Assembly: GCA_049968235.1 (NCBI GenBank)
Contig: JBMFRC010000007.1
Coordinates: 96,001-160,000 of the forward strand
Direction of reading: 5' to 3'
Origin: Candidatus Hydrogenedens sp.
GTDB lineage: Bacteria; Hydrogenedentota; Hydrogenedentia; Hydrogenedentales; Hydrogenedentaceae
Length of the DNA: 64,000 nucleotides
The notes under the pieces are model-generated. The model saw only the letters and a list, made by a program, of their open reading frames with translations. It was not told the DNA's origin and searched no databases. The position numbers were made by a program, and so were the translations under genes. Shown here one piece after another: positions 3,822 to 58,444 of this stretch; position 1 is the first letter of the stretch; each line of letters opens with the position of its first letter.

Positions 3822-3838
3822 ATATTTACCTTTCTCAT

Positions 3839-4672: not shown

Positions 4673-4682
4673 CTATCATATC

Positions 4683-5273
4683 CTATAAAAAAGACTTTAG
4701 TGGATGAAAAACATTATCTTCTGTAATAATCCAATCAACGGGAACATCCCAGTTCCTGCGAGGACATAACATTACTATCTGGAAACTATAACAAAAACCC
4801 ACAGAAACGCATTGTCTATTATTACCTAAAAATCGGTCATAAAATCCTTTCCCATATCCAATCCGATAACCACGACGGTCAAAAACAATCCCCGGGACAA
4901 TGCACACTGTATTCTCTTTTATATTATCCGTAGATGGTTCCCAATCATCCGGAGGTTCTAATATACCCCGAGAACTAATCTCTAATTTTTTTATTTTCTC
5001 TTCATTAATTAGATACCATGCCAGATTATGACCTTTTACACGGGGTATCCACACCTTTTTCCCTCTTTCAAGCAGTGAACAAATAACAGATTTTGTTTCC
5101 ACTTCTCCCCGTTCATCAGACATATATACAAAAAAATTTTCTTTTGAATCCCACCAATCTAATGAAAAAAACAACTTTTTTATTCTTTCACTTTTCTCTT
5201 TTACTTCGTCAGGTAAAAGTAACCTCCTACAAAATAATACCTTCTTCCGTAACTCTTCTTTAGATATATTCAT
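4683..5273 (-). CDS. 5-formyltetrahydrofolate cyclo-ligase (MTHFS)
   Basis: 'VPGIVFDRRGYRIGYGKGFYDRFL' C-terminal MTHFS signature and 'WIPRV' motif. Confidence 0.8.
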   Translation of the reverse strand: MNISKEELRKKVLFCRRLLLPDEVKEKSERIKKLFFSLDWWDSKENFFVYMSDERGEVETKSVICSLLERGKKVWIPRVKGHNLAWYLINEEKIKKLEISSRGILEPPDDWEPSTDNIKENTVCIVPGIVFDRRGYRIGYGKGFYDRFLGNNRQCVSVGFCYSFQIVMLCPRRNWDVPVDWIITEDNVFHPLKSFL

Positions 5274-5301
5274 TTCTTTCTATCTAATACTTGCTGATAA
5301 A

Positions 5302-5712
5302 TTAATAAAAAACCACATGGAAGAGAGCATCATTCGATGCTTTTATCTTGAACTGAACAGGAACTTCTTTATCTTGCGGTGCCAAAATTTGACCGATTAA
5401 AGAAGAAATCACATAAAACCGTATTTCTATTTGTTCTGGATAACTTTCTGCTATCGATACGGTTTTTCCGAGATAAAAACATAACTGATTTGGAAATACA
5501 AATTTCCCTGAAAAGTTCCATTCTTCCATATCAACACTCTCTTTTGTAATTGTCCCTGTAAAGCCCAGAGGACCCTCAACTCTATAACCAAATTCTGTGG
5601 ACAATAATGTCAATTCTCCTTCTCCAAAAGGCTTACAGATACATCCCGAAAATCCAATAATTAAAAATAAAGCAATAATAATCGGCATTGTTTTTTTCAT
5701 CAGATTCTTCAT
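5302..5712 (-). CDS. small lipoprotein (lipobox IIGFSGC)
   Basis: N-terminal signal peptide ending in an L-x-G-x-x-G-C lipobox. Confidence 0.55.
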   Translation of the reverse strand: MKNLMKKTMPIIIALFLIIGFSGCICKPFGEGELTLLSTEFGYRVEGPLGFTGTITKESVDMEEWNFSGKFVFPNQLCFYLGKTVSIAESYPEQIEIRFYVISSLIGQILAPQDKEVPVQFKIKASNDALFHVVFY

Positions 5713-5858
5713 TATCTTTTTCTCCTCAAATAAAATTATAAATTACTTTTGAATATTACAAATTCTAATGAAACCCAGATGTCTTTCAATCTGTCTCTAT
5801 ATATGGTAATAAACATACTACGCGCGTGGCAAAAAACAAAACCAGAAAGGATATGCGT

Positions 5859-6842
5859 ATGTTAAAAAAGAAAGGATTTACTTTAATTGAGTTGTTGGTT
5901 GTAATTGCTATTATTGGTATACTTGCAGCCATCTTGCTACCTGCCCTTGCCCGTGCACGCGAAGCGGCTCGCCGTTCCAGTTGTCAAAACAATCTGAAAC
6001 AATGGGGACTTGTCCTTAAAATGTATTCCAACGAAGCAAGAGGAGAACGATTTCCTCCTGTTCAATTTGGTGCCTATCCACAAATTAACGGAAATATCGA
6101 AGTTCGTGCCGACCTTTGTCCCAGTACCTTCTTAATCTATCCTGAATATCTCAACGACCCTATGATAGCCTTTTGTCCATCGGACTCCGACTATCGTCAA
6201 ACAATTACTCGTGCCAAATATCCTGACCGTGATGATTGGTGTATAAATGTATATGCCAGTGATACAGTATCCTGTGCCTCTGCTATGGATTCAAGTTATA
6301 TTTACTTAGGATTGGTCATGGACCGTATAGGCGATGAATGGCCTATGGTAGATATTACCCCTATGGTAAATGTTTTGAATTCACTTGGAGCAGGTCCTGT
6401 ATCCGGTTCAGGGAATGCCCCCGCACAGTTAGTTTACGGATTAATGGCATTGGCAAAACCGGAACTCATTACTGCTGTTAATACAAAAGATAATGCAGGT
6501 ATTATGCGCGTCGTTGATGCAGACATAACAAGTTCTATACTTGATGGCTATGGTAATGGAGGAACCAATACCGTTTACCGGTTGCGTGAAGGGATTGAAA
6601 GATTTCTCATCACAGATATTAATAATCCCGCATCCAGTTCAAAAGCACAGAGTAGTCTACCTATCATGTTCGATAAAGTATCAACTGATGCTTCAAACTT
6701 TAACCATATTCCAGGAGGGTCGAATGTCCTTTATCTTGATGGACATGTCGAATTTCTCCGTTACCAACCGACGGGCGGAACTGCTCCTGTAACACAAGCA
6801 GTAGCAGTTGTCATCGGAGTTCTTGTTTCCGCATTGACATAA
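5859..6842 (+). CDS. prepilin-type N-terminal cleavage/methylation domain protein with C-terminal H-X9-DG motif (DUF1559 family)
   Basis: '[48 protein letters not shown]' and later '[17 protein letters not shown]'. An AAAGGA RBS lies 7 nt before the ATG at 5859; the ORF is open from GTG 5826. Confidence 0.8.
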
Positions 6843-24777: not shown

Positions 24778-26220
24778 ATGACAAAAAAAACTATTGAACC
24801 TCGTTTACTCAAAGGTTTTCAAGACCACCTACCACCAAAAAGTAAAATTCGACAGGAGATAAAAGAAAAAATTATTTCCGTCTATGAAAAATATGGTTTT
24901 GCATTCATCGAAACACCCGCAATTGAATTGAAAGAAATCTTACTCGGTCCCGGAGGAGAAAATATCAATAAAGAAATTTTCTTCTTAGAAACACCCGAAG
25001 GGGAACAATCCTGTCTTCGATTTGACCATACAGTTCCCTTTGCCCGCGTCATTGCCCAATATCCTGAAAAAATAAAAATCCCTTTCCGTAGATACACCAT
25101 TGGGTCTGTATGGCGTGCCGATAAACCCGGTGTGGGGAGATACCGTGAATTCGTCCAGATGGATATTGATATTGCCGGAACACCTAACACCGCTGCTGAT
25201 GCAGAAATCATTGCCATCATGGTAGAAGTTATGAAAATCCTCGGATTTAATAATTTTCAATCACAAATCAACAATAGAAAATTAATTGACGCTCTATTAA
25301 TACAAAATGGTATTAAAGATATAGATACACAAAAACACATCCTGCGAGTTATTGATAAACTGCAAAAAATAGGTATCGATAATATTCGTAAAGAACTCGG
25401 AGAAGGTCGTATAGATGATTCCGGTGACCCTATCAAAGGCGTCGGATTACCGAATAGTATTATTGAAAAAATTATTAGTTTCATAACTATAACCGGCAAA
25501 ACACGCAAAGAAACTATTCAGAATATCAAACAATACTTATCAGACCAAACAGAATCTCAACAGGCAATCTTTACTATGGAAGAACTTGACCAATATCTAT
25601 CCGCTCTTGATATATCTGATACGGAAGCATCCTTTTCCACTTCACTTACCCGAGGACTGGACTACTATTCCGGACCTGTTTTTGAAATGATACTCAAAAA
25701 TGCTCCTCATATCGGCTCGGTTATGGGCGGTGGAAGGTATGACGGACTCATTTCACGATTTACAGACAAAACTATCCCCTGCACAGGAATGTCAATCGGT
25801 ATAGATAGACTTATAAATGCTATGGAAGAATTAAAACTAATAGATACACAAAAACCAATATATGATGTCATTATTACTCGAGTAGGAAAAGTTCCTATAA
25901 CGGAAGCACTTTCTATAGCAAAAGAATTGCGCAATCACGATTTAAAGGTCAGCGTCTATCTCGGGAAAAAAACAAAAGAAACTTTAGGCGAACAATTATC
26001 ACATGCAGACCACTACAACATACCCATTGCTGTTATATTGGGTGAAGATGAACTCAAAAAAGGGGAAATCTGTGTAAAAGATTTATACTATGGAGAAAAA
26101 GCTCGTAAGGATATAAAAGATAGAAATCAATACCGTGAAGCAGGAACAGTAAGTCAGGTTACTATCTCACGGGAAAAATTGGTAGAAACAATCTTTTCAT
26201 TTCTCAATAAAAATTATTGA
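24778..26220 (+). CDS. hisS: histidine--tRNA ligase (class II)
   Basis: Motif 2 'RYTIGSVWRADKPGVGRYREFVQMDIDIAG', motif 3 'GGGRYDGL...GMSIGIDRL', and a C-terminal anticodon-binding domain. Confidence 0.75.
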   Translation: MTKKTIEPRLLKGFQDHLPPKSKIRQEIKEKIISVYEKYGFAFIETPAIELKEILLGPGGENINKEIFFLETPEGEQSCLRFDHTVPFARVIAQYPEKIKIPFRRYTIGSVWRADKPGVGRYREFVQMDIDIAGTPNTAADAEIIAIMVEVMKILGFNNFQSQINNRKLIDALLIQNGIKDIDTQKHILRVIDKLQKIGIDNIRKELGEGRIDDSGDPIKGVGLPNSIIEKIISFITITGKTRKETIQNIKQYLSDQTESQQAIFTMEELDQYLSALDISDTEASFSTSLTRGLDYYSGPVFEMILKNAPHIGSVMGGGRYDGLISRFTDKTIPCTGMSIGIDRLINAMEELKLIDTQKPIYDVIITRVGKVPITEALSIAKELRNHDLKVSVYLGKKTKETLGEQLSHADHYNIPIAVILGEDELKKGEICVKDLYYGEKARKDIKDRNQYREAGTVSQVTISREKLVETIFSFLNKNY

Positions 26221-26687
26221 GGGTCACCAATTACAGGGTCATTATTTGATGGTAATTGACTCTCATTGTAGCGAATAATTCCTGTATGGTCTATACGGAA
26301 ATACCTATTCCCCGAATAACCTATTGTCTGAGGTGAAGCATAACATATAAACTGGACATTTGTTACTTGTGGCATAGAATATACATACCCCTGACGGATA
26401 CAGCCTTCACCCCATGATTCATCCAAATACCGCGTCGTCAGATTGGGAGATGAATTTACAAGGCTGTTAAAATCACCATAAGTATTATTTGCAGAATGAT
26501 ATGACACCTGTGCAGTACAAATAGCCCTTAAATTCCAGATAGTAGATGCCTCATTAGAATGAATTCGTGAACGTATTAATGTCGGAATAGTTATCGCAGA
26601 TATTATTGCGATTACTGCTACTACTACCATCATCTCTATAAGTGTAAACCCTTTTTGCCTTGTTCTCCACTGACGCCATTTATTCAT
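26214..26687 (-). CDS. type IV pilin / pseudopilin (prepilin N-terminal methylation domain)
   Basis: 'QKGFTLIEMMVVVAVIAIISAI'. An AAAGGA RBS is present. Confidence 0.75.
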   Translation of the reverse strand: MNKWRQWRTRQKGFTLIEMMVVVAVIAIISAITIPTLIRSRIHSNEASTIWNLRAICTAQVSYHSANNTYGDFNSLVNSSPNLTTRYLDESWGEGCIRQGYVYSMPQVTNVQFICYASPQTIGYSGNRYFRIDHTGIIRYNESQLPSNNDPVIGDPQ

Positions 26688-26715
26688 CGTTCACATCCTT
26701 TGTTATTTTAGAATG

Positions 26716-26761
26716 TAAAACAAAAAGGCATGATGGCGGTCACCGGGTTCCGCCATCATGC
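26716..26761 (-). terminator. intrinsic terminator/attenuator between the two pilin genes
   Basis: 12-bp GC-rich inverted repeat GCATGATGGCGG..CCGCCATCATGC, followed on the minus strand by CUUUUUGUUUU. Confidence 0.6.
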
Positions 26762-26812
26762 ACTCAGCACCAACACAACCCACTGATTAGCGGGTTAATG
26801 GCTAAACTACGA

Positions 26813-27244
26813 TTATTGTTCTCCGATGGGCGGGTCACCAGCGCCAGCCTGTCCACCTGTATTGAAGCGGATTACACCACTGGCATCTGTGTAGAAATAA
26901 CGATTACCACTTACACCAACTTCACTCGGGTCTGCATTGCAGGTAAAGTTATTTGGTCCCGGAGAAGCCAGAGTAAATGTATAACCTTGCTTAATACCAG
27001 CCCAGTTTCCTTCTAAGAATGGAGGGGTTGCCCCTGTTAGGTCTGCAAAATCACCCGTATAAGAACCATTTGCAGAGTTATAGGCAACTTCAGCACCAAC
27101 AATGGCTTTTAAGTTGCTGATTGCAGCAGATTCATTGGACTGCAATCTGGAACGAAGCAGGTTGGGAATCGCAATTGCTGCGATAATAGCGATGATTGCT
27201 ACCACAATCATCAATTCAATGAGTGTGAAACCTTTATTTTTCAT
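26813..27244 (-). CDS. type IV major pilin (PilA-like)
   Basis: '[30 protein letters not shown]'. Strong AAGGAG RBS, 143 aa. Confidence 0.8.
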   Translation of the reverse strand: MKNKGFTLIELMIVVAIIAIIAAIAIPNLLRSRLQSNESAAISNLKAIVGAEVAYNSANGSYTGDFADLTGATPPFLEGNWAGIKQGYTFTLASPGPNNFTCNADPSEVGVSGNRYFYTDASGVIRFNTGGQAGAGDPPIGEQ

Positions 27245-30540: not shown

Positions 30541-32469
30541 ATGAAAAACATATTATCACAAAAAAGCAAACAAACTTTCTTGCTTCTGCTTATCTCCATT
30601 GTATTACTATCCATCTCAGGATTCCCGCAAGAAGAGCATAAAACGGTTCTGGGATTAAATGTGGATTTCAACAAAATTCTTATAAACACCTCTCACGATA
30701 GACTCATCAAAGAAAGGTTTTCAATAGATAAAGGATTATTGGCTCAAACAGAAGAGGGGAAGGCAGCTCTCCAATGGGCAAAGGAACTCCTTCAGGAGCA
30801 AACAACAATTCCGCCAACACCCTATACCCTCTACAGAGAGTATAAAAGAACAGGAGACCGAAAAAAATATGAACAACCTTATTTCCTGAAACGGTCTATG
30901 CTTTCCGCAACTACTTTACTTATTTATTTTGAAAACGATGATTCTTTACTTCCCCTTCTTAACGACCTCATCTGGAATATTTGCGAGGAAACTTCCTGGG
31001 TCCTTCCTGCTCATGAACGACAAGAAAAATATACCTATGTTGACCTGTTTTCCGCCGAAACCGCAACTCAATTAGCCCACACATTCCTCTTCTTAGAAGA
31101 TAAACTTCCTGATGAAATCAAAAAAAGAATTCGCTATGAAGTTAAAAGGAGAGTTATGCAACCTTACCTTTTTTATTCTGAAAATAAATACGGCTGGGTT
31201 AGTGGACGGAATAACTGGACAGGTGTTTGTGCCGGGTCCATCGGTGAATGCTTTATCATACTGGAAGAAAACGAACAAATTCTCCGTAAAGCCATTACTC
31301 TCGTTACAAACCAATTAGCACGGTTCTTGAAAAATGGTTTTGCGGAAGATGGTGGTTGTCTGGAAGGCATCTCTTACTGGAACTATGGACTTACGCATTA
31401 TGTCAGTTTTGGCGAACTACTTTATGAAGCAACCGATGGGAATGTGAATATCATGCAGAACCCGCGTCTTTACCAGATTGCCTTCTACCCTTATGTCGTT
31501 TACTTAGGAAATGGACAATTTGCCAGTTTCTCCGATGCCCCATCGCAATTTTATCCTCACGCTTTCATCACACATCGGTTAGCAGATCGTTTCTCCGCTT
31601 ATGACCGACTTTCTTCTACATCTCATCCTTTCATTTACCATAAATTGGGAAAACGACTAAATGTAGATTACCTGCATGCACTCGCTAATCCTTCACCAAT
31701 ACACTGGCATTTTGGAGATATTATCCGCAATATCCTCTGGTCCTACCCTTATTCTCAACAGGCTAAACAAGAAATCCCCATTAAAAGCACTTGTTTGCCT
31801 AAATCCGGTATTGCAAGATTTGTCTCAAAAGATAATCATGGAAATACACATATTGTTATTTGTAAAGCGGGTAGTAATAATGAACCCCACAATCATAACG
31901 ATGTTGGAAGTTTTGTATATGCTGTCAATAATACTATATTTCTAACAGACCCCGGTGCTGGTCTTTATTCCCGCGAATATTTCAGTGCTAAACGATATGA
32001 AAACATCTTTACGAATTCATACGGGCATAGTCTCCCCGTTATCGGAGGAAAACTACAAAGTACCGGAGAACAATACAAAGGAGAACTTATCTATGAAGAA
32101 CCTAACAAAGCCATTATAAACTTCCATGAGGCATACAACATTCCAACTTTGAAAAAAGCACAACGAACCCTTTTACTTAACGAAAATGGACTAAAAATTA
32201 CCGATATCTTTGAATTTTCAAATCAAGGAGAAGAAGTAGAAGAAGCACTCGTAACATGGCTTCCTGTATCTATACAAGGTAATTGTGCCATCATTGAAAG
32301 CAAAGAAGGCAAAATTACAATCACTCCTTCTTGTGGGTCTTTTGAAGTGGAATCCCTTAAAAAACAGTGCGAAGAAAACAGCCGTTCTGGCGAACTCTCT
32401 CGCATAAGATTAAAACTCCCTACACAAACCAAAACACAGATTACATTTAACATAACCTTTTTAAAATAA
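30541..32469 (+). CDS. secreted heparinase II/III-family polysaccharide lyase-like protein
   Basis: Signal peptide, N-terminal alpha/alpha toroid-like region and the C-terminal 'HNHNDVGSFVYAVNNTIFLTDPGAGLYS' heparinase II/III motif. Confidence 0.65.
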   Translation: MKNILSQKSKQTFLLLLISIVLLSISGFPQEEHKTVLGLNVDFNKILINTSHDRLIKERFSIDKGLLAQTEEGKAALQWAKELLQEQTTIPPTPYTLYREYKRTGDRKKYEQPYFLKRSMLSATTLLIYFENDDSLLPLLNDLIWNICEETSWVLPAHERQEKYTYVDLFSAETATQLAHTFLFLEDKLPDEIKKRIRYEVKRRVMQPYLFYSENKYGWVSGRNNWTGVCAGSIGECFIILEENEQILRKAITLVTNQLARFLKNGFAEDGGCLEGISYWNYGLTHYVSFGELLYEATDGNVNIMQNPRLYQIAFYPYVVYLGNGQFASFSDAPSQFYPHAFITHRLADRFSAYDRLSSTSHPFIYHKLGKRLNVDYLHALANPSPIHWHFGDIIRNILWSYPYSQQAKQEIPIKSTCLPKSGIARFVSKDNHGNTHIVICKAGSNNEPHNHNDVGSFVYAVNNTIFLTDPGAGLYSREYFSAKRYENIFTNSYGHSLPVIGGKLQSTGEQYKGELIYEEPNKAIINFHEAYNIPTLKKAQRTLLLNENGLKITDIFEFSNQGEEVEEALVTWLPVSIQGNCAIIESKEGKITITPSCGSFEVESLKKQCEENSRSGELSRIRLKLPTQTKTQITFNITFLK

Positions 32470-32631: not shown

Positions 32632-33321
32632 GTGATTAAGCGAAAAATCATTTCTATAGACTCCGAAAAATGTAACGGTTGTGGTTTGTGTGTTAACGCC
32701 TGTGCGGAAGGTGCTATAAAACTCATTAATGGCAAAGCACAATTAGTTTCCGATGTTTACTGCGATGGTTTAGGAGCATGTCTGCCTCATTGCCCCACAT
32801 TAGCACTCTCCATTGTAGAACGAGAAGCGGAACCTTTTGATGAAGAATTAGTTAAATTACAGCAAAGCATTAACGAACCTAAAACACCCATACATACATG
32901 CCCGAGCATACAATTCAAACCTGACCCTGCCCGAAAAGGAACCCTTTCCTACTGGCCTATCCAGATTCGACTCGTTCCCCCTATGGCTCACTACCTTCAA
33001 AACGCTAAACTCCTGGTAGTGGCGGATTGTGTTCCCATCGCATATCAAAATTTCCACAGCGATTTTTTGCAAGACCATGTTGTCCTTGTCGGCTGTCCCA
33101 AATTCGACCCGAAAGAACAATATGTTCAAAAATTCGCCGAAATTTTCACAAACAATGATATAAAAAACGTTACCATCCCCGTTATGGAAGTTCCATGCTG
33201 TCAGGCACTACCCAATATCGTACTTGCAGGCTTGCAATATTCAGGGAAGAATATCCCTGTTGAAAAAATTATAATCTCAATTCAAGGAGAAATATTGGGT
33301 AAACAATTCATTAATGGGTAG
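32632..33321 (+). CDS. 4Fe-4S dicluster ferredoxin-domain protein with a Cys-containing C-terminal domain (GTG start)
   Basis: 'CNGCGLCVNAC' plus 'CDGLGACLPHCP' motifs. AGGAG RBS. Confidence 0.65.
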   Translation: MIKRKIISIDSEKCNGCGLCVNACAEGAIKLINGKAQLVSDVYCDGLGACLPHCPTLALSIVEREAEPFDEELVKLQQSINEPKTPIHTCPSIQFKPDPARKGTLSYWPIQIRLVPPMAHYLQNAKLLVVADCVPIAYQNFHSDFLQDHVVLVGCPKFDPKEQYVQKFAEIFTNNDIKNVTIPVMEVPCCQALPNIVLAGLQYSGKNIPVEKIIISIQGEILGKQFING

Positions 33322-33327
33322 AAATTA

Positions 33328-33803
33328 ATGCAACAAAAATCATCTAAAATATCCTCAGGTTTTTCTCATTTAATACCTATCTGCGTATGCTTCGGAATTC
33401 TCATCGGAGTAGGTTCTTTCACTTTTATTACGCCCGCGGTTATTCATACCTTACCGATGACCCCAACGCCTGTGCTAATTGCCATGTAATGAAAGATTTT
33501 CTCGACTCCTGGCAAAAATCAAGCCATCACACTGTTGCAGTCTGTAATGACTGCCATACAGGACATACCTTGTTCTCCAAATACTATGTCAAAGGCTTAA
33601 ACGGCTATCACCATTCCACCGCATTCACTCTGGGCAATTTCCACGAACCTATTCGCATTAAAGAATTCAACCGAAAAGTAACAGAGGGAAACTGCCGATT
33701 TTGCCACCAAGACATTGTGCAAAATATTGATTCCAATATTGCTCATCGCAAACCATTACAATGCTTAAATTGTCATTTTAATGTAGGTCATTTTAATTAT
33801 TAA
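33328..33803 (+). pseudogene. nrfH: nrfH (NapC/NirT-family tetrahaem cytochrome c) interrupted by a single-base frameshift in a T4 run near 33423
   Basis: The TM anchor reads in frame 1 (MQQKSS...FGILIGVGSFTF). The haem domain reads in frame 0 from 33387 with four CXXCH motifs (CANCH, CNDCH, CRFCH, CLNCH). One extra T restores '..GSFTFYYARGYSYLTDDPNACANCH'. Confidence 0.75.
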
Positions 33804-33820
33804 AGGAAAAGAAAAAGAGC

Positions 33821-35239
33821 ATGACAAAAAAAATCAGAGGCAATGAAGGTATATCCTCAATCACCGCAGTTATCCTTGTGCTGGGAGTTGCTTTCGCCAC
33901 ATTTGCGGTAACTGCATTGCTTATTAATATCTTTGAGAAACAACAAGAGGCAAAAAATCCTTTTTTCCGTGTTGTTGACATTAATGACGACACGGAAGAC
34001 CCGGAAATCTGGGGAAAGAATTTTCCTATCCAGTATGACCTGTATAAAAGAACTGTAGATATGGTCCGCACAAAATACGGTGGCAGTGAAGCATTACCTC
34101 ATACGCCTACCGAAAATGACCCGCGTTTCGTTGTTAGCCAATCCAAAATTGAACTCGACCCCCGACTAAAACGAATGTGGGCGGGTTATGCCTTTGCCAT
34201 TGATTTTCGTGAAGAGCGAGGACATGCCTATATGCTCGATGACCAGACCTTCACAGGCAGACAACAGAAGCCACAATTCGGTGTGTGTGCACATTGCCAC
34301 GCATCAGTATATGTCCCCTATAAAAAATTGGGTAATGGCGACCTTATAAAAGGTTTTGAAAAGATGAATCCCATGCCCTATATGGAAGCGAGAAAACTCT
34401 TACAACATCCTGTTGCATGTATCGATTGTCATGACCCAAAAACCATGCAACTACGAGTAACCCGTCCCGGTTTCCTTGAAGGAATTAAAACCTACAAAGA
34501 AGCTCAGGGAATAAAGGACTACAATCCCAACACTATGGCAAGCAGACAAGAAATGCGGACCTATGTCTGTGCCCAATGCCATGTTGAATATTATTTCAAA
34601 GGCGATGAAAAACGACTTACCTACCCATGGCATAAAGGTCTGGAAGCAGATAATATCCTCGCCTACTACGATGAAATCAACTTCAAAGATTGGGTTCATG
34701 CAGAAACAAATGCACCTATGCTCAAAGCACAACATCCTGAATTTGAATTATGGAGTCAGGGCATTCATGCTCGTTCCGGTGTCGCCTGTGCAGATTGCCA
34801 CATGCCATATACTCGCGTAGGAGCTTTAAAAGTAAGTGACCATCATGTCCGTAGTCCATTATTGAATATTAACCGTGCCTGCCAGACCTGTCACCATTTC
34901 TCCGAAGAAGAACTCAAAGCACGCGTAGAACGTATTCAAGACAAAACAGCTGAAATGAAAGATATGGCAATGGATTCTCTTATAGCACTCATTGACGATA
35001 TTAAACGAATCCTGGATACAGGCATCTCCAATGAAAAAGTTGAAGAAGCCCGCTTATGCCAGCGTCGTGCGTCATTCCTGATAGACTTTGTTGAGGCGGA
35101 AAACTCCACAGGCTTCCACGCCGACCAGGAATCCGCCCGTATCCTATTCAAAGCCATGGACCATCTTCGCAAAGGACAGGTCGCACTCAAAGACGCCATT
35201 ACCCTCTACCAGGCATACGGCAACACAACAACAAACTAA
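33821..35239 (+). CDS. nrfA: cytochrome c nitrite reductase, pentahaem catalytic subunit
   Basis: Five CXXCH motifs (CAHCH, CIDCH, CAQCHVEYYF, CADCH, CQTCH), an N-terminal anchor/signal, and the conserved 'CAQCHVEYYF'. Confidence 0.85.
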   Translation: MTKKIRGNEGISSITAVILVLGVAFATFAVTALLINIFEKQQEAKNPFFRVVDINDDTEDPEIWGKNFPIQYDLYKRTVDMVRTKYGGSEALPHTPTENDPRFVVSQSKIELDPRLKRMWAGYAFAIDFREERGHAYMLDDQTFTGRQQKPQFGVCAHCHASVYVPYKKLGNGDLIKGFEKMNPMPYMEARKLLQHPVACIDCHDPKTMQLRVTRPGFLEGIKTYKEAQGIKDYNPNTMASRQEMRTYVCAQCHVEYYFKGDEKRLTYPWHKGLEADNILAYYDEINFKDWVHAETNAPMLKAQHPEFELWSQGIHARSGVACADCHMPYTRVGALKVSDHHVRSPLLNINRACQTCHHFSEEELKARVERIQDKTAEMKDMAMDSLIALIDDIKRILDTGISNEKVEEARLCQRRASFLIDFVEAENSTGFHADQESARILFKAMDHLRKGQVALKDAITLYQAYGNTTTN

Positions 35240-35298: not shown

Positions 35299-36156
35299 CT
35301 ATCTCTTTTTTTTGCAGTCGAAGTAGTGGTTGTTTTTGGGACCGAACCAGCCGACATTCCATGCACGATTAATAGCACCGTAGGCATTTTCTTCCGTTGC
35401 CCATTCCCAGCGTTCTGAGGTGATATGTCCATCACACCATAAGACATTTGCCCTGCCCCAATGTCGAAAATGTAATGTTGGCGACATATATACACCTTCC
35501 TGCCCTCGTGGATAATTTGCTGAAACCATCAATGGCGGTTCCACAAAACTATATTCGACAATATATCCATTCTGAGGCATTCCACTATCTGCAAACATAA
35601 TCGTCTCTGAGGGATTTTCAATCATCCGCTCATGCATTCCTGATTTACATGCTTTTACCGGGTCATGTTCGATACTCAACATGGAACCGACATACGCCAT
35701 GTTATATCCATAGCCGCCCGAACCCGATTCAAATGCGTTGGGAACCTCGCCTAAACTCCGATATTCAAAAAATTCCGAGCATTCTTTAATCCTTCCCTCC
35801 GGCACATATTCAAATAACGGTCCTTTGCGAAAATCGAACGGCGTATCTGGATTTGGGGTATCTCGTCTTCCATGCCATCTACATCTACCTCCGAAATGGT
35901 CAGGTTCCGAACCCGGCAACAAAAAATCATACATATCCGAGGCGGCTGGAACATAATACCCATTATTCTCTGACGCATACATTGTATTAGCAAGGTACAA
36001 TTGTCTCAAATTATTCACACATGAGACACTCCTTGCCTGTGCCCGTGCCCTTGATAATGCAGGTAGAAGTATAATTGCCAGAATGCTAATGATGGCAATA
36101 ACAACCAGCAGTTCAATTAGAGTAAATCCCATATTTCTCTGCAAATTAAAAAACAT
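35299..36156 (-). CDS. prepilin-type N-terminal domain protein with H-X9-DG motif (DUF1559 family), second gene of the riboswitch-controlled operon
   Basis: '[44 protein letters not shown]' and '[16 protein letters not shown]'. Overlaps the upstream gene by 11 nt. Confidence 0.8.
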
Positions 36157-38260
36157 TCTGACCTCTTTTTACTTTCTCTTTCTTATCTGTGAGGAGAAGC
36201 AGTCCTATGACGACACATATTAGAGCCAAAAAAGCACTGCCTGCCATAGGAAGTGTTTTTACCTCAAACTCAAAATTCCGGCATATTAATTCATGAGAAC
36301 GATATTCATCATCATAAATACATACCTCTACATAAGCAGTCCCACCTACAGATATAGGTTTTACAACAAAATATATCCTCCCTTCAGAAATTGTAATTTG
36401 ATGCCCCGGAACAGCACGCAATACATCCGATGTAACTATTGTTCCACCTGCAATATCTACTGTAACCACACCCGTCTGTAATGGATTTCCGTAAATATCC
36501 TGAAATTCATCCGAAATAAAACTGAAATACTGCCCACCTTCTCCCATATTCCATAAATTAGCAATATACGCTGGCGGTCCCGGTAAAATATCAATAAATA
36601 TCTCTCCGTGTATCGTATTATCTATACTCTGAACCCAAAGTTTTCCCTTTCCTGCTACAGTTCCAGCCTCCACATTTATCTCCAATTTTCCATCCTTCAC
36701 CGCAACCTGAAGACCGTCAATAATTACATCCTCATCCATATTCAAAATATCCAGCAAAAAAGTATTAATCGTAAACAGTTTCCCATCTGAAACTGGATTA
36801 TTTTCCACATCCCTTATCTCATCACCCGTAACCCTTACAACATCTCCATATCCTACCACCTTTGTCTGCGATGGGTTCGCTGTTAAATGAATATGTCCCT
36901 GTCCCGGATTAATATCTCCTTCCCCTGCTAATGAAAATATCGCAAATACGCCCGGATACCGTGTTTGAAAAATTATCTTATTATTCACAAGGTCACGGTC
37001 AATAACATTTACATCTGAATTTACCCATTCTGTCCCATTCCAGCGATAAACATTTATCTCCGCTTCATCCATCCCATGAATTTGCTCTGCATTGTATCGG
37101 ACTCTCATCTTTGCCCATGCAATTTGAGCATTCTGAAAATCATTTACAGAGGAGGATAATTGAATGAACAAACCGCCCTTTACCAATCCATTTACTCCTA
37201 CTGTTGACGGATCTGGAACGGATTGCAAATCCACACTACAATTATAAGGTCTTTCACCCGTTCTAATCCCGGATGAAACTAATGTTATACAAATGTAATC
37301 TTCTGGATTACATGCAGTCCCCAACTCCATACCCGCTGGACTACCTCCCCAAATACCAGGTATTTCCAGAGGCAGAACGGTGCTTTCCGGTCGGTTCGGG
37401 TCTGTTCCGGAAACTTGTGTTTCATACTCATCAAGAACTCCATCCCCATCTGTATCTATATCTGGTGCCACATCGGCAAATGCCATAACTTCCGTTGTAT
37501 AAAAACCATACACAGGGTCAAGAATATTGGGTATTGTTGAAATTCGTATAAAATCGAATTCATCAAGATTTGCCGGGGTTCCCGATTCATCAACAGCCCA
37601 TGCAATATCAAACGCATCACCGCCCCCGCTACCTATATCAATACCTACAGTCTTTGGATTATCCGGTCGCAAATAATTATCCTTATACGGTGGCATGGTC
37701 GGATTGGTATCCGCATAACCCCACACTACTTCCTGGTTCGTTGTCGTAATTACATTTCCTGCAAATGGTGGTGTATTGTTTGTCAATCCCTGAGGGAAAA
37801 CAATCCTATTTAAGTTTCTACTACCAGGAATAACATACCACACATCATCCGCCAACCCATTTTTATTCACATCCTTTGATATTTCAATTAGTCCGGGTTC
37901 TATAAACTTCCTGTGCATATCCCCTCCAATCCAAAAGGCATTGGAATAAATAATACAATCCAGCCCCATCGGATTATGGGGGTCATCCTTTACAGGAGTA
38001 TTAAACTTCACAATAATAAAACTTTCTTGAGGTGCTCCCGGTGTGCCGATTGAATAAATACCACTCATTGACGGTAAACTTACACCAAACCCTAATGGTG
38101 CTCCCAAAACATCGTGCGGATTGGTAAAGCCAACATTTTGATTTATCCCAAAATAGGACACAACCTCATCTGCCCATGGGTCATCATCCGCATAAGAATA
38201 TACGGAGATAATGCAACATAGGAGAATAATCAATAAATATCTTTTTTTTCTGTCAAACAT
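36146..38260 (-). CDS. 704-aa secreted cell-surface protein with a C-terminal sorting-signal-like anchor
   Basis: Signal peptide '[16 protein letters not shown]', a DTDGDGVLD Ca-binding-like motif, and a C-terminal 'LPMAG' + hydrophobic stretch + 'KKEKVKR' tail. An A8 tract sits in codons 4-6. Confidence 0.65.
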
Positions 38261-38439
38261 CGCATCTATAGCCTTTCAAAATTTTGTTCAGGCTACAGAC
38301 GGAGGATTAAACACTGGAAGGGAAGTTGTTCAGCCCATATTTGATGGACTGTCAGACATCAGCCTTCCCGCGAGACCTCAGTCTGTTCGCTCAAATCGGA
38401 CAGCAACTGGTAGGTCTTCGGACTTGCAGGCACAAACCT

Positions 38440-38570
38440 ACTTGGCTCGGCTTCCCAGAAATGCATCCAGTGCCATTACGAGCTGTTCGTTCCTGCTCAC
38501 CGCTGCGGGGCAGTTCCGGCTTTGCACCGGATTCCCTCTTAGCACCCTTTACACTACTTTGGGTGACCAG
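38440..38570 (-). ncRNA. cobalamin (B12) riboswitch, in the 5' leader of the 36146..38260 operon
   Basis: Minus strand reads 'AAGGGUGCUAAGAGGGAAUCCGGUGCAAAGCCGGAACUGCCCCGCAGCGGUGAGCAGG...GUAAUGGCACUGGAUGCAUUUCUGGGAAGCCGAGCC', matching the conserved GGGAA..GGUG..AA..CC, CCCCGC and GCCACUGG..GGGAAGSC core of the cobalamin aptamer. Locally GC-rich with no credible ORF. Confidence 0.8.
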
Positions 38571-38707
38571 TCACAGAGCGATTCAATTTTGTTTGTATTC
38601 ACTTATAGAGTAATAACACAAAAAGATAAAAAATTTCAAATATTTCAGAACCAATATACCTCTATATGGTATATTAATATTATAGATGTCAAAAGGAAAA
38701 AACGAAT

Positions 38708-38959
38708 ATGATATTTGATTTTAGTAAGTGTCAATCATCTAAAGAAAATATTCAAAACGCTATAGGACTATGGATTCTTAATATTCAAGGAAAAGATGTT
38801 TGTTTCTGGGGAAATTTTGAAGAAGCTTCAAAAACTGCAGAACTTTATTTAAAAACAAAGAACATAGAAAATACTACTGTTTATCTAATAGATTGTGTTG
38901 ATTATAGCCAGATGTTCCATGAGGATCATTCTATAAATTCCTATTCCCAATCTATTTAA
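38708..38959 (+). CDS. hypothetical small protein (ORFan, AT-rich)
   Basis: ORF only; no recognisable motif. Confidence 0.25.
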   Translation: MIFDFSKCQSSKENIQNAIGLWILNIQGKDVCFWGNFEEASKTAELYLKTKNIENTTVYLIDCVDYSQMFHEDHSINSYSQSI

Positions 38960-39135
38960 TGCTTTAATCTATTTATTTTTCTATTAATGATAATAAAAAT
39001 TAATTATATTATTTTTCTTATTTATAAATAAAATTCTTTATTTTATCCCGAAAATTTGGCAAAATCTGGAATAATATGTTATAATTTCAATGATAATGAT
39101 TGTTTTCATTAAATTATAATAAAAGGATTTATTAT

Positions 39136-39579
39136 ATGTTATCATTCGTAGATGTTCGATGTCCTCATTGCGGAGCACAGGGAAAAATTGTCCTTCCTCC
39201 TCTGGGAACAGTTTTAATTGGACCCTGTCCACAATGCAAAGGTATGGTCGCTTTGTTCAATGGGACAACACTCCCGTTAGACAGCAAAATAATATTAGAC
39301 GGTACTCTTGAAGAGAAGAAAAAACATATAGTTGATGTATTTAATGCTTTTATCGAAGAGAAAGTGGTAGAATTTTTTAATCCTAAAAAAGAAGGACTAT
39401 CTCCTCAACCGGATGATGCTAATGATTCATACAAATCAGAACATAGAATTGAAGAATACAGTCACAAAAAAATGAAAAAAAATAAACCTATCTCACGCGA
39501 CGAAGTTATGAAATTTAAAGAATCAGAAATAGACCTCCTCGATAATCCTGAAATATTTCGTAAATATTTCAGCAACTAA
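39136..39579 (+). CDS. zinc-ribbon (CPHC...CPQC) hypothetical protein
   Basis: 'VRCPHCGAQGKIVLPPLGTVLIGPCPQCKG'. An AAAGGA RBS lies 8 nt upstream of the ATG at 39136. Confidence 0.5.
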   Translation: MLSFVDVRCPHCGAQGKIVLPPLGTVLIGPCPQCKGMVALFNGTTLPLDSKIILDGTLEEKKKHIVDVFNAFIEEKVVEFFNPKKEGLSPQPDDANDSYKSEHRIEEYSHKKMKKNKPISRDEVMKFKESEIDLLDNPEIFRKYFSN

Positions 39580-41248: not shown

Positions 41249-41325
41249 CGCGGGGTGGAGCAGTCTGGCAGCTCGTTGGGCTCATAACCCAAAGGTCGCT
41301 GGTTCGAATCCAGCCCCCGCTACCA
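41249..41325 (+). tRNA. initiator tRNA-fMet (anticodon CAU)
   Basis: 'CGCGGGGUGGAGCAG...GGGCUCAUAACCC...GGUUCGAAUCC..CCCCGCUACCA' is near-identical to bacterial initiator tRNA. It has a C1:U72 mismatch, three G-C pairs in the anticodon stem, and an encoded CCA. Confidence 0.9.
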
Positions 41326-54078: not shown

Positions 54079-54154
54079 TGCCGGATCGCCTAATTGGTAG
54101 GGCACCTGACTCTGGATCAGGCTTGTCTAGGTTCGAGTCCTAGTCCGGCAGCCA
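54079..54154 (+). tRNA. tRNA-Gln (anticodon CUG)
   Basis: Cloverleaf with U1:A72, acceptor UGCCGGA/UCCGGCA, anticodon loop CUCUGGA, T-loop GGUUCGAGUCC and CCA. Confidence 0.85.
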
Positions 54155-54254: not shown

Positions 54255-54330
54255 GGCCCCTTCATCTAGCGGTTCAGGATGCAGGATTCTCAGTCCTGTC
54301 ACACGGGTTCGAATCCCGTAGGGGCTGCCA
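54255..54330 (+). tRNA. tRNA-Glu (anticodon CUC)
   Basis: 'GGCCCCUUCAUCUAGCGGUUCAGGA...' resembles tRNA-Glu. Anticodon stem CAGGA/UCCUG with loop UUCUCAG, T-arm ACGGGUUCGAAUCCCGU, and CCA. Confidence 0.85.
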
Positions 54331-56215: not shown

Positions 56216-58444
56216 ATGCGAAAAATTTTCTTATTAACGCTTCTTTTTGTTTGTAGTTCTCTTTTCTGTCAGGCACAGCCTGCAAATTATCCCGACTGCT
56301 ATGATGAGGTATGGGATACGCCAGGTCAGAATTCATCTGATTCAATGCCTATTGGTAATGGAGACATAGGAGCAAATGTTTGGACTGAGGAGAATGGCGA
56401 TATTGTCGCACTCATCAGTAAAACTGACGCATGGGATGATAACGGTCAGTTGTTAAAATTGGCTCGTGTCCGTTTCAAGATAACCCCATCCCTTACGGGG
56501 ACAAATGCAAATTTCTCTCAACGATTACATCTACAACATGGCACGATTAAAATACAGGGGAATGCTGGAAAAACAATGGCAATATTTCGTGTAGATGCAA
56601 ATATGCCCGTGGCGGTTTTGAATGTGGAAAGTAAAGAAAATGTGGATTTACAGGTAATATTAGAAGTCTGGCGGACAACACCCCGCAATTATACTGAGGA
56701 TGAAGTCAATCAGAGCAGTTTAATCCAGAAAATTGAAGAAGGTGTGGTGTATCCGGATGTTGTGTTGGATAATCCACCTTTTTCAGGGCTATTGGTATAT
56801 CATCAAAATAATCATTCTATCTGGGGTTACTCAATGGATTTGCAGGGCTTCGCTGAGTATAAAAATAAATTTACTGACCCCCTATTAAACCGAATCTTTG
56901 GTTGTGCGATTTGGTCAAATGATTTAAAAAAGGCAGATACCTTTACCTTAGAAGGTAAAGGTAAGAAAAATTACACGGTATATATTTTAGGGAAGACCTT
57001 GCATCCCTCAACCCCTGATGAGTGGTTGAATACCGTAGTAAAAGAGCGGGAAAAGGTGCTAAATGTCGTAGAGGATAAAGCATTTGAGCAGCATAAAAAC
57101 TGGTGGCGAAACTTCTGGCAGAGAAGTTGGATTGTCGCAAGTGGTGATAAGGATGCGGAGTGGATTAGCAAAGTATATGCCTTACAACGCTGGGTAACTG
57201 CATGCGGAAGTAGAGGTGCATATCCGGTTAAATTTAATGGTTCCATCTTTACTGTGGAATGGCGAGAAGGTAATGAACTTAAGTCGGACCCGGACTATCG
57301 TCGTTGGGGAGGTGGCTACTGGTGGCAAAATACAAGATTGCCTTACTGGCCTTTGTTATCTTCCGGTGATTTTGATTTAATGAAGCCTGTATTCGATTTG
57401 TATATGAGTATAATGGAAATCAGTAAACTGCGTAGCAAAGTCTATTGGGGGTGTGAAGGTATTTATATGCCAGAAACTATATATCCCTGGGGGCTATTAC
57501 GCAATCGCGATTATGGATTTGACCGAACCGGTTTGAAAGTAGGCGAAATTACCAATCCATATATCCGCTGGATTTGGGCAAGTGGACTGGAATTAACTTT
57601 GATGATGTTGGACTACTATGATTTCACAAAGGATGACGTATTTCTAAAAGAAACCTTGCTACCCTATGCCCGTGAGATTATCCGATTTTTTGAAACCCGT
57701 TTTCCTAAAAATGAAACCGGAATGCTCATTATACATCCGGCGCAAGCAGTAGAAACTTATCAGGAAGGTGTAACCGATGATACGCCCACTGTTTCTGGCT
57801 TGCATGCAGTTCTACCACGATTAATGGCACTGAACACTACCGAAATTACAAATGAAGAAAAATCCCGTTGGGAACAATTATTAAAGTCTGTAGTGCCTGT
57901 ACCGATTAAAGATGGTCGAATTCAGCCAGCACGCATATTTAACTCCAAACGCGGGAATGTAGAAAACCCCGAATTATATGCCGTGTTCCCATACCGCATC
58001 TTTGCCACCGGCAAACCCAACATAGACATAGCGATTGAAAGTTTCCAGAAAAGGTATGCAAAAGACTATCACGGCTGGCAACAGGATGCAATTCAGGCAA
58101 GTTTCTTAGGACTAACAGATGAAACAAAAAAAATGTTAATTACAAATGCCTATCGTAAACACGAAGGTTCGCGTTTCCCCGCATTTTGGGGACCGAACTA
58201 CGATTGGATACCCGACCAATGCCACGGTGGAAACATTATGAGCACATTACAATTCATGCTATTGCAATGGGACAAAGATAACATTTATCTATTCCCCGCA
58301 TGGGATAAAAACTGGAATGTAGACTTTAAACTCTATGCCCCCTATAACACCTCTATTCGTTGTATCTTACAGAAGGGGCAAATCCAAATTATAGATGTAA
58401 CTCCACAGGAAAGAAAAAATAATATAACAATGTATCTGCAATAA
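56216..58444 (+). CDS. secreted hypothetical protein, possible glycoside hydrolase (six-hairpin-like)
   Basis: Signal peptide. 'PIGNGDIGANVW' N-terminal pattern is reminiscent of GH95-type enzymes. Weak. Confidence 0.4.
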   Translation: MRKIFLLTLLFVCSSLFCQAQPANYPDCYDEVWDTPGQNSSDSMPIGNGDIGANVWTEENGDIVALISKTDAWDDNGQLLKLARVRFKITPSLTGTNANFSQRLHLQHGTIKIQGNAGKTMAIFRVDANMPVAVLNVESKENVDLQVILEVWRTTPRNYTEDEVNQSSLIQKIEEGVVYPDVVLDNPPFSGLLVYHQNNHSIWGYSMDLQGFAEYKNKFTDPLLNRIFGCAIWSNDLKKADTFTLEGKGKKNYTVYILGKTLHPSTPDEWLNTVVKEREKVLNVVEDKAFEQHKNWWRNFWQRSWIVASGDKDAEWISKVYALQRWVTACGSRGAYPVKFNGSIFTVEWREGNELKSDPDYRRWGGGYWWQNTRLPYWPLLSSGDFDLMKPVFDLYMSIMEISKLRSKVYWGCEGIYMPETIYPWGLLRNRDYGFDRTGLKVGEITNPYIRWIWASGLELTLMMLDYYDFTKDDVFLKETLLPYAREIIRFFETRFPKNETGMLIIHPAQAVETYQEGVTDDTPTVSGLHAVLPRLMALNTTEITNEEKSRWEQLLKSVVPVPIKDGRIQPARIFNSKRGNVENPELYAVFPYRIFATGKPNIDIAIESFQKRYAKDYHGWQQDAIQASFLGLTDETKKMLITNAYRKHEGSRFPAFWGPNYDWIPDQCHGGNIMSTLQFMLLQWDKDNIYLFPAWDKNWNVDFKLYAPYNTSIRCILQKGQIQIIDVTPQERKNNITMYLQ

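Follow-up and report, generated by a model that had tools for sequence, protein, structure and literature searches.

BtuH proteins are accessory binders of vitamin B12 (cobalamin) in riboswitch-controlled cobamide uptake loci (PMC8941943, PMC10404256). In the structure 7BIZ, BtuH2 of Bacteroides thetaiotaomicron carries cyanocobalamin in its C-terminal globular domain, with a dissociation constant (KD) of 6.4 pM (PMC8941943), and chain B of the structure 8BLW is BtuG1, in which a BtuH-type domain forms the C-terminal extension of ~250 residues (PMC10404256). Over 80% of the btuH genes of gut Bacteroidetes are co-encoded with btuB (PMC8941943), and a review of September 2026 places BtuH homologues in Bacteroidota and three Firmicutes only. 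The present analysis concerns a locus of Candidatus Hydrogenedens sp. (Hydrogenedentota) on the contig JBMFRC010000007.1; the whole stretch of 64,000 nt that was analyzed (positions 96,001 to 160,000 of the contig) is referred to below as the window. In this locus, a cobalamin riboswitch precedes two overlapping genes, one of which encodes a 704-aa secreted protein with a BtuH-type domain (gene 1, the putative binder) and the other a 285-aa type-IV-pilin-like protein (gene 2). Taken as a whole, the locus is probably a two-gene, B12-repressed corrinoid-capture module, in which the binder works with a dedicated type-IV-pilin-like partner.

The 704-aa protein resembles BtuH1, BtuH2 and the H-domain of BtuG1 of B. 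thetaiotaomicron in having a homologous globular domain that is combined with immunoglobulin (Ig)-like domains and stands under a cobalamin riboswitch. However, the domain is C-terminal in BtuH and N-terminal in the 704-aa protein, and the lipoprotein anchor of BtuH contrasts with a Sec signal peptide and a C-terminal membrane helix here. In addition, btuB, btuG and btuFCD are not part of the present operon, where a pilin-like protein is paired with the binder or, in relatives, fused to it. The present domain occurs in Hydrogenedentota and Phycisphaerae, and most of its ligand-contact residues differ from those of BtuH. Similarity to BtuG, a beta-propeller surface lipoprotein (PF16819/DUF5074) that caps BtuB, is limited to the functional class, namely a presumed extracytoplasmic corrinoid binder under a B12 riboswitch. 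The beta-jellyroll binders BtuJ/DUF4465 (PMC13398666) are also accessory extracytoplasmic B12 binders, known from several phyla and linked to B12 transport loci; membership of the 704-aa protein in this group was rejected, because no Pfam match to DUF4465 was found and DUF4465 is regarded in the literature as a family of its own.

Gene 2 can be compared with type IV pilins and type II secretion pseudopilins, with which its product shares the class III signal (G/FTLIE) and a long alpha-1 helix followed by a beta-sheet. Its pairing with a large non-pilin ligand-binding protein resembles a tip-adhesin arrangement; minor pilins that carry or dock modules for ligand binding (ComP, PilV and the PilY1–minor pilin complexes) belong to this class of proteins. 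Nevertheless, the globular part of the 285-aa protein is about twice the usual size, its gene lies outside a pilus gene cluster and under a vitamin riboswitch, and its partner has a membrane helix of its own and often precedes the pilin leader in a fused protein. The DUF1559 (PF07596)/H-X9-DG (TIGR04294) proteins of Planctomycetota, Verrucomicrobiota and their relatives have the same prepilin motif, DUF1559 N-terminal region and H-X9-DG motif, but gene 2 belongs to a sharply defined orthologous subfamily with invariant motifs of its own.

The cobalamin riboswitch and the BtuH class of binding domains are already known. New with respect to the literature searched are the phyla that carry the domain, the anchoring of the binder and its obligate, often fused, pilin partner. 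No earlier report in this literature was found to connect a riboswitch with a pilin or DUF1559 protein or to deal with B12 biology in Hydrogenedentota, and mentions of DUF1559 were rare and all in passing.

The riboswitch and the two proteins of the operon

An Rfam scan revealed only one riboswitch in the whole window, a match to the cobalamin aptamer model RF00174 that covers model positions 1-189 of 189 and reaches 113.3 bits (E 1.3e-27), where the gathering score is 31.5. The 3' end of the aptamer is 131 nt away from the AUG of the 704-aa gene (position 38260), on the same strand. A first-pass annotation of this DNA, made from the sequence alone, had proposed a canonical cobalamin aptamer on the minus strand and a search with RF00174 as its check; the strong, full-length, above-threshold match on that strand bears this out. 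Its end coordinate of 38575 proved to be 11 nt short, since the aptamer extends to 38586, and the distance of about 180 nt that it gave to the gene is valid when counted from the aptamer core and not from the 3' end. The leader was found to belong to the transcript of the 704-aa gene, as assumed there, for it lies on the same strand and a conserved hairpin buries the Shine-Dalgarno sequence of this gene.

The expression platform contains, in this order, the conserved hairpin CAGACUGAGGUCUCGCGGGAAGGCUGAUGUCUG, a second hairpin and a 12-bp sequestor hairpin (38263-38301). The 3' arm of the sequestor pairs with the Shine-Dalgarno sequence GAAAGG (38272-38277) and stops 3 nt short of the AUG. This hairpin was present in both the minimum-free-energy and centroid folds, either of the platform alone or of the whole leader (z -3.3 and -4.2), and it was kept in the five closest relatives. 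No intrinsic terminator was found on the minus strand between the aptamer and the AUG; translational control is therefore preferred, and transcription attenuation is disfavoured. By its predicted fold, the leader would act as a translational OFF switch that changes state upon cobalamin binding.

A profile of the 704-aa protein family (A1), built from 38 members, was searched against all PDB sequences. Exactly two chains were matched below E 0.001, namely 8BLW_B (chain residues 424-659, E 1.1e-18) and 7BIZ_A (chain residues 266-491, E 4.8e-16), both within profile positions ~53-266. Modeling with AlphaFold (AF2) led to a model with a mean predicted local distance difference test score (pLDDT) of 82.8 and a predicted template modeling score (pTM) of 0.75. 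A Foldseek search with this model ranked 8BLW_B first (1.9e-9) and 7BIZ third (3e-7), while the other matches were Ig/FN3-type stalk domains. Residues ~25-268 can be firmly assigned as a divergent homologue of the Bacteroides BtuH B12-binding domain. The domain occurs in 866 clusters, according to an exhaustive phmmer search with E up to 1e-3. Neither Pfam nor NCBIfam contains a model covering it, which accounts for the uninformative annotation of the 704-aa protein: the Pfam scan returned the thrombospondin type-3 repeat PF18884 alone, at 24.9 bits, just below the Pfam cut-off of 25.

The conserved features of the domain are an invariant N107, the loop D130-x-N-x-N-G-L-x-D-D-x-W-Y142 and WGY180-182; a DxNGNGLxDDxWY loop is common to BtuH2 and the 704-aa family. 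The B12-contact residues of BtuH2 are Gln333, Asn399, His476, Tyr510, Trp511 and Trp577 (PMC8941943). They were located in the chain of 7BIZ by subtracting 100 from the residue number, a relation verified at four sites. Asn399, which contacts the phosphate, aligns with N107, and this residue is invariant in the family and in 11 of 11 cross-phylum domain sequences. Trp577 aligns with Tyr in the window protein and with Phe in most relatives, and Gln333 is outside the aligned region. Homology and genomic context suggest that the domain of the 704-aa protein binds B12; the identity of the pocket is not firm.

By analogy with BtuG, the first-pass annotation had regarded the 704-aa protein as a candidate for a novel surface protein that binds or scavenges corrinoids and proposed to compare its predicted structure with BtuG and BtuH. 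The best domain-level Foldseek matches were BtuH-type chains. Corrinoid binding is favoured by the homology to the B12-binding domain of BtuH2 and to the H-domain of BtuG1; the claim of a novel class has to be dropped, as the protein is a divergent member of a known one. The analogy with BtuG itself did not hold, because the nearest relative is BtuH. A BtuG-like propeller was looked for and rejected: no match to PF16819 was obtained, no propeller is visible in the model, which shows a globular domain together with Ig-like domains, and the match to 8BLW_B is to the H-domain.

The remaining architecture of the 704-aa protein is uniform within its family. An AxA-type signal peptide is directly followed by a conserved (E/D)DPWAD, and no lipobox Cys is conserved after the signal peptide across the family, so that the protein is not a lipoprotein, unlike BtuH. 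In the thrombospondin repeat, residues D269, D273, D277, E280 and T286-D-P are invariant. The Ig-like stalk is all-beta, mostly with pLDDT >85, and its Foldseek matches were invasin, intimin, alpha-2-macroglobulin and FN3 domains. The C-terminal helix 672-694 lies between an LP-x motif and the basic tail KKEKVKR, and the same layout of LP motif, membrane helix and Arg/Lys-rich tail recurs family-wide. A secreted protein with a C-terminal anchor, as proposed earlier, is therefore supported by the Sec signal peptide and this helix; its 'surface' label is not, given that the protein is no lipoprotein and is anchored by the C-terminal membrane helix only.

More than 300 homologues of the 704-aa protein were found, nearly all of them labelled Candidatus Hydrogenedentes/Hydrogenedentota, including a protein of a Candidatus Hydrogenedens sp. 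metagenome-assembled genome (MAG) with 100% identity (P0001). Identity within the binder family is 37-78%. A weak partial NCBIfam match, far below the cut-off (E 4.3e-7), was observed between residues 28-131 (~37868-38179, minus strand) and the 'LIC_13355 family lipoprotein' of Leptospira. This suggests, at the level of sequence profiles, that the LIC_13355 family may also carry a BtuH-type domain; a fragment of BtuH2 gave no match to the NCBIfam LIC_13355 model.

Gene 2 overlaps gene 1 by 11 nt, as had been noted before. The TTTTTT run in this overlap was considered as a site of programmed +1 frameshifting, which would give a fused protein; this was rejected, since the run is not conserved in the related loci L003 and L004. 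The assignment of the 285-aa protein as a DUF1559 protein with a prepilin N-terminus and an H-X9-DG motif was likewise upheld. It exceeds the cut-offs of N_methyl (PF07963; 29.3 bits vs. 21.2), PF07596 (25.5 vs. 23.3, the N-terminal part only being covered) and TIGR02532 (25 vs. 16.3); the score for TIGR04294 is 17.2, just under the cut-off of 19, and the literal H232-X9-D242-G243 is present. Its class III signal sequence consists of a short basic leader, G(-1), F(+1), E(+5) and a hydrophobic alpha-1 helix, and the protein shows the pilin fold, with the alpha-1 helix packed on an antiparallel sheet. For the globular domain, no solved structure could be assigned: Foldseek returned nothing with E <1, and sequence matches were confined to the alpha-1 helix.

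The pilin subfamily is more conserved than the binder, with 58-93% identity across more than 120 clusters. In 35 pilin orthologues, F11, T12 and E15 are invariant, as are H229, R231, H232, W240, D242, G243 and H244. The invariant motifs of the subfamily are RWHGxR, GGYGYN, EYSFxEP, HFRH..WCDGH and VGWFGP.

Table 1. Features of the riboswitch-controlled operon, with positions in the window
Feature	Positions	Strand	Basis or remark
Possible sigma-70-type promoter, TTGACA, 18 nt, CATATT	38705-38734	-	~120 nt upstream of aptamer
Cobalamin riboswitch aptamer RF00174, full length	38392-38586	-	Rfam match
Expression platform	38261-38391	-	Folding of platform and whole leader
Gene 1, 704-aa secreted, C-terminally anchored protein with BtuH-type domain	36146-38260	-	Open reading frame (ORF)
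Sec signal peptide, residues 1-24, predicted cleavage SYA/DDDPWAD	38189-38260	-	Prediction
BtuH-type globular domain, residues 25-268	37457-38188	-	PDB profile matches and Foldseek
Bacterial thrombospondin type-3 (calcium-binding) repeat, residues 269-291	37388-37456	-	PF18884
Stalk of beta-sandwich Ig-like domains, residues 292-666	36263-37387	-	AF2 model, Foldseek
C-terminal transmembrane helix, residues 672-694	36179-36247	-	Prediction, AF2 model
Gene 2, type-IV-pilin-like protein (DUF1559 / H-X9-DG), 285 aa	35299-36156	-	ORF
Prepilin peptidase site G10/F11-T-L-I-E15 and start of hydrophobic alpha-1 helix	36094-36129	-	Motif
H-X9-DG motif, H232..D242-G243	35428-35463	-	Motif

Conservation and fusion of the gene pair

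Related loci were collected by scanning one genome per GTDB species. There were 80 of them, 73 belonging to the Hydrogenedentota-type family and 7 to Phycisphaerae; the two sets have the N-terminal domain alone in common. At the Rfam gathering threshold, a first set of 11 loci all had an aptamer upstream, in the same orientation as the gene, as did 11 of the 12 in a second set, and 28 of the 29 related loci scanned pass the threshold for the cobalamin aptamer at the same position. Using an nhmmer profile made from the Rfam hits, the aptamer was detected in 70 of the 80 loci, again upstream and on the gene's strand, and in the 10 negative loci the contig stops short of the expected aptamer position. 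The recurrence of the riboswitch–gene pair in related genomes, on which the first-pass annotation had made its proposal depend, was thus observed at all 70 loci with enough upstream DNA.

The three distant domain architectures sampled are all riboswitch-controlled as well. In L087, the gene for an 808-aa protein with a type IX secretion system (T9SS) tail precedes those for a Plug-domain TonB receptor and a PF16819 (BtuG-family) protein, which is the canonical Bacteroidota layout. L088 encodes a 633-aa domain protein, and L086 a 243-aa protein that consists of a signal peptide and the domain only, with no anchor.

A pilin orthologue directly follows the binder gene in 66 of the 69 loci with long enough contigs. 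Where binder and pilin are separate genes, they mostly overlap by 4-17 nt, and in 23 loci both are encoded by one in-frame ORF. All 23 fusions have the same order of elements, namely the ectodomain, LP-x, the membrane helix, an Arg/Lys-rich linker of 10-30 residues and G/FTLIELL, so that the LP motif, helix and basic stretch of the separate binder are found in every fusion. This layout appears topologically self-consistent: the first helix would run from outside to inside, and the cytoplasmic basic loop would serve as the prepilin leader. Cleavage of a fusion at G/F would regenerate the two proteins of the two-gene form. An origin of the fusions from assembly or gene-calling artefacts was rejected, as they come from 23 contigs of different assemblies, are all in frame and have one layout.

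The pairing extends beyond the Hydrogenedentota-type family. In the Phycisphaerae loci L074, L077, L079 and L080, a pilin orthologue with 35% identity over the full length follows the BtuH-domain gene (E 1e-40 to 1e-45), and in L086 the pilin orthologue after the 243-aa domain protein has 39% identity (E 5e-52). A reverse search from three pilin clusters, chosen for their long contigs, placed 3 of 3 behind a riboswitch and a Pfam-less gene of ~700 aa. In the loci examined, the partner of the BtuH-type gene is either BtuB with a BtuG-family gene (L087) or the pilin, never both. The first-pass annotation had expected a functional context for DUF1559 proteins at large; such a context is now available for one orthologous pilin subfamily and not for the whole family.

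Additional genes were observed within some related operons. About 30 loci (L022-L033, L049, L053-L065, L070-L076) encode an extra conserved secreted protein, 340-430 aa in length, in the interval from the riboswitch to the binder gene (for example L027:4732-5883), which is sometimes duplicated or is ~625 aa long with a CFI-box-CTERM domain (L053:4082-5959). It gave marginal beta-propeller matches (YncE, E 0.005; hydrazine synthase beta, 2e-5) and no PF16819 match and, on this sequence evidence, may be a BtuG-like analogue. The family is absent from the window and was rejected as a part of the present locus. In L010, a gene for a 1123-aa protein with Big_12 and Ig domains (2522-5893) is located between the riboswitch and the binder gene; its homologue is the upstream ORF of L008 (7-1971), an Ig-rich protein of 654 aa in the copy cut by the contig start. 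L008 and L009 are two operon copies of the same MAG, CAZMVU01.

Two tandem cobalamin aptamers (4092-4261 and 4373-4573; 96 and 94 bits) are located upstream of the operon in L071, from a Hydrogenedentota MAG. The Phycisphaerae binders (L074-L080) are short, ~310-370 aa, and that of L080 (5824-6900), the one locus scanned in this respect, has a dockerin/EF-hand-type module at its end; NCBI gives the name 'GC-type dockerin domain-anchored protein' to P0270, a similar Planctomycetota protein of 319 aa. This tail is a different anchoring solution for the BtuH-type domain. Two other RNA elements were recorded that are unrelated to the operon, a ZMP/ZTP riboswitch in L021 (2290-2380, minus strand, 54.5 bits) and a group II intron D1-D4 fragment in L081 (8521-8611, minus strand, 39.5 bits).

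Proposed function and alternatives

In the mechanism that we propose, cobalamin at a high intracellular level would bind the leader aptamer, the downstream hairpin would keep the Shine-Dalgarno sequence paired and translation would be blocked. When B12 is scarce, both proteins would be made, in a 1:1 ratio because the overlap of the genes provides translational coupling. The gene 1 product would be exported by Sec, with the putative B12-binding domain of the BtuH type at its mature N-terminus. This domain would be held on the calcium-binding repeat and the Ig-like stalk and tethered by the C-terminal membrane helix with its basic cytoplasmic tail. The gene 2 product would be cut at G/F by a prepilin peptidase and would serve as the obligate partner of the binder. 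Most likely, the pilin links either the binder or what it carries to a type IV filament or a type II secretion-like machine, so that the domain would be displayed and B12 brought inward. A physical partnership is favoured because the BtuH-type gene has alternative partners across lineages, the pilin residues are kept in fusions and the pilin also stands beside the anchorless 243-aa form.

Several observations weigh against such a mechanism. Of the six BtuH2 contact residues, a single one is clearly kept and a second shows a conservative replacement; His476 falls in a 29-residue insertion specific to BtuH2, and the equivalents of Tyr510 and Trp511 differ between the HMMER and MAFFT alignments. 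Loops 108-115 and 167-180, which surround the presumed pocket (N107, WGY180-182), have low confidence in the model. The sole anchor of the 704-aa protein, the C-terminal membrane helix, points to an inner-membrane placement in a diderm cell, so that surface exposure is at most a possibility. Three loci (L022, L063 and L070) have a binder and no pilin. No B12 transporter gene (btuB, btuFCD) or pilus-assembly gene is adjacent in any locus checked. Finally, covariation support for the expression platform is thin, as only close relatives contribute to it.

The alternatives differ mainly in where the pilin would act. It could be a device for crossing the outer membrane that stands in for the TonB-dependent BtuB, with retraction of a short type IV filament or pseudopilus through a secretin pulling the vitamin into the periplasm, in a manner likened to DNA uptake by competence pseudopili; the carrier would be either the binder or the aromatic- and His-rich globular domain of the pilin itself. 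The alternative partners of the BtuH-type gene, BtuB with a BtuG-family gene in L087 and the pilin in Hydrogenedentota, Phycisphaerae and L086, which did not occur together in any locus examined, speak for such import, as do the retention of G(-1), F1 and E5 even in fusions, which argues for processing and assembly, the two small major-pilin-like proteins of the window (26214-27244, minus strand) and the subfamily-specific invariant Trp, His and Tyr motifs. We nevertheless consider it unlikely: no secretin, ATPase or platform gene is linked, pilus-mediated vitamin uptake has no precedent in the literature searched and travel on a filament does not sit easily with a binder whose C-terminus is anchored in the membrane. 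A relay within the periplasm is also doubtful. In this case, both proteins would stay in the inner membrane with periplasmic domains, the BtuH-type domain, thanks to its long stalk, would pick up B12 after passage through the outer membrane by another route and hand it to an ATP-binding cassette (ABC) importer, and the pilin would be an unpolymerised co-receptor. Unassembled pilins are bitopic inner-membrane proteins, the signal peptide, C-terminal helix and basic tail of the binder correspond to a type I inner-membrane topology, and a helical-hairpin fusion would set both domains side by side in the periplasm. The relay leaves the strict conservation of the pilin processing and assembly residues unexplained, however, and the other architectures of the domain all carry surface or extracellular targeting (the lipoprotein of B. 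thetaiotaomicron, the T9SS tail of L087, the dockerin/EF-hand module of Phycisphaerae); L086 has no anchor at all.

A role of the pilin as a specialised pseudopilin, through which a type II secretion-like system would recognise the binder and push it to the surface, is quite improbable; LP-x, the helix and the basic tail would then act as a cleavable sorting signal comparable to those of GlyGly-CTERM or PEP-CTERM cargo. The conserved LP-x right before the helix and the basic cluster after it are consistent with this, as are the 1:1 coupling and fusion of cargo and pilin and the surface targeting of the domain in other phyla. Still, the supposed signal becomes internal in the fusions, no sortase-like or type II secretion gene is linked, and a recognised PEP-CTERM-like sorting domain was rejected, since the NCBIfam C-terminal sorting models at E up to 1 gave a weak PGF_pre_PGF match (0.034) alone; this possibility is therefore only a minor rival. 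There is very little chance that the domain does not bind corrinoids in this lineage and that what the riboswitch adjusts to B12 status is another activity of the envelope, for example adhesion or the binding of glycans. The lack of conservation of most BtuH2 ligand-contact residues would agree with that, the BtuH2 domain modestly resembles a region of alginate lyase (PMC8941943) and glycoside hydrolases neighbour several loci. These hydrolases, however, lie outside the operon and differ between loci, whereas the riboswitch is linked to the domain in every evaluable locus and sampled architecture, one of them inside a BtuB and BtuG-family operon.

With this locus, the BtuH class of B12-capture domains extends to uncultured phyla, in which annotation pipelines, for want of a Pfam or NCBIfam domain model, label such proteins as hypothetical or as 'thrombospondin repeat' proteins. 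Within the DUF1559 / H-X9-DG family, which is very large and has no known function, one subfamily gains a testable context conserved across two phyla, namely co-regulation by a B12 riboswitch and translational coupling or fusion to a homologue of a B12 binder. The alternative partners raise a possible TonB-independent route of vitamin uptake or display that, if true, would bear on the uptake of scarce cofactors by Planctomycetota-like and candidate-phylum cells. A broader and rather speculative idea, to which we give a low probability, is that Hydrogenedentota and some Planctomycetota take up B12 by a type-IV-filament route, in which a DUF1559 pilin displays or retrieves the BtuH-type binder and replaces the BtuB and BtuG of L087; the DUF1559 expansions of the Planctomycetes–Verrucomicrobia–Chlamydiae (PVC) bacteria would then be nutrient-specific 'fishing' pilins. 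The fusion protein, with its ectodomain, membrane helix, basic loop and prepilin site, is an unusual natural 'long-leader' prepilin that is usable for studies of prepilin peptidase specificity.

Genomic surroundings

Downstream of gene 2, the window contains convergent nrfH/nrfA-like cytochrome genes (33387-35239, plus strand), and the operon is therefore one of two genes. The region 32632-35239 encodes a 4Fe-4S protein, a NapC/NirT-type tetrahaem cytochrome (33387-33803) and a cytochrome c552 NrfA-like protein (33821-35239; PF02335, E 8.5e-131) and looks like a nitrite-ammonifying nrfHA module. The genes downstream of the operon vary by locus and include glycoside hydrolases, kinases and ppk. 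The Pfam scan, which covered 40 window ORFs, brought up neither btuB or btuFCD nor a gene for cobalamin biosynthesis or a B12-independent isozyme, in agreement with the earlier annotation. A Plug/TonB-receptor domain was also absent from the operon and the scanned flanks, both in the window and in the related Hydrogenedentota and Phycisphaerae loci.

Upstream, two small ORFs are divergent from the riboswitch operon, 38708-38959 (plus strand, 83 aa) and 39100-39579 (plus strand, 159 aa). Neither has a Pfam match; they occur at the same position in L001-L004 and L035 with 65-86% identity and, more weakly, in L005 (65% and 39%), and because of this conserved position they are regarded as real genes. 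The 121-nt gap 38587-38707, which the operon and the gene 38708-38959 have in common, must hold both divergent promoters. The sigma-70-type candidate placed there agrees with the consensus at 10 of 12 positions and is weak, matches of this quality being no commoner here than in shuffled sequence.

Other prepilin-like genes were observed in the window. A second DUF1559 gene (5826-6842, plus strand, 338 aa, with N_methyl and PF07596) adjoins pdxA. Its product has only the N-terminal helix and the H-X9-DG region in common with the 285-aa pilin (36 bits), and the RWHG, GGYGYN, EYSFxEP and GWFGP motifs are absent from it; the genome therefore has several DUF1559 paralogues of different specificity. 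Two small prepilin-type proteins with GFTLIE motifs, of major pilin or pseudopilin size (26214-26687 and 26813-27244, minus strand, 143 and 157 aa), suggest the presence of a type IV filament or a type II secretion-like system in the genome; among the window ORFs scanned, no pilus-assembly genes were identified.

The window has a G+C content of 37.4% and contains three tRNA genes, all on the plus strand: tRNA-Met(CAT) at 41249-41325, tRNA-Gln(CTG) at 54079-54154 and tRNA-Glu(CTC) at 54255-54330. The tRNA-Met gene and the neighbouring genes for proteins of 379 and 567 aa are syntenic with Candidatus Hydrogenedens terephthalaticus (L001). Genes for a hybrid-cluster (prismane) protein (847-2157, minus strand), a heparinase II/III-like protein (30541-32469, plus strand) and a DUF5703/GH95-like glycoside hydrolase (56216-58444, plus strand) were also found, and they fit an anaerobic, glycan-degrading lifestyle.

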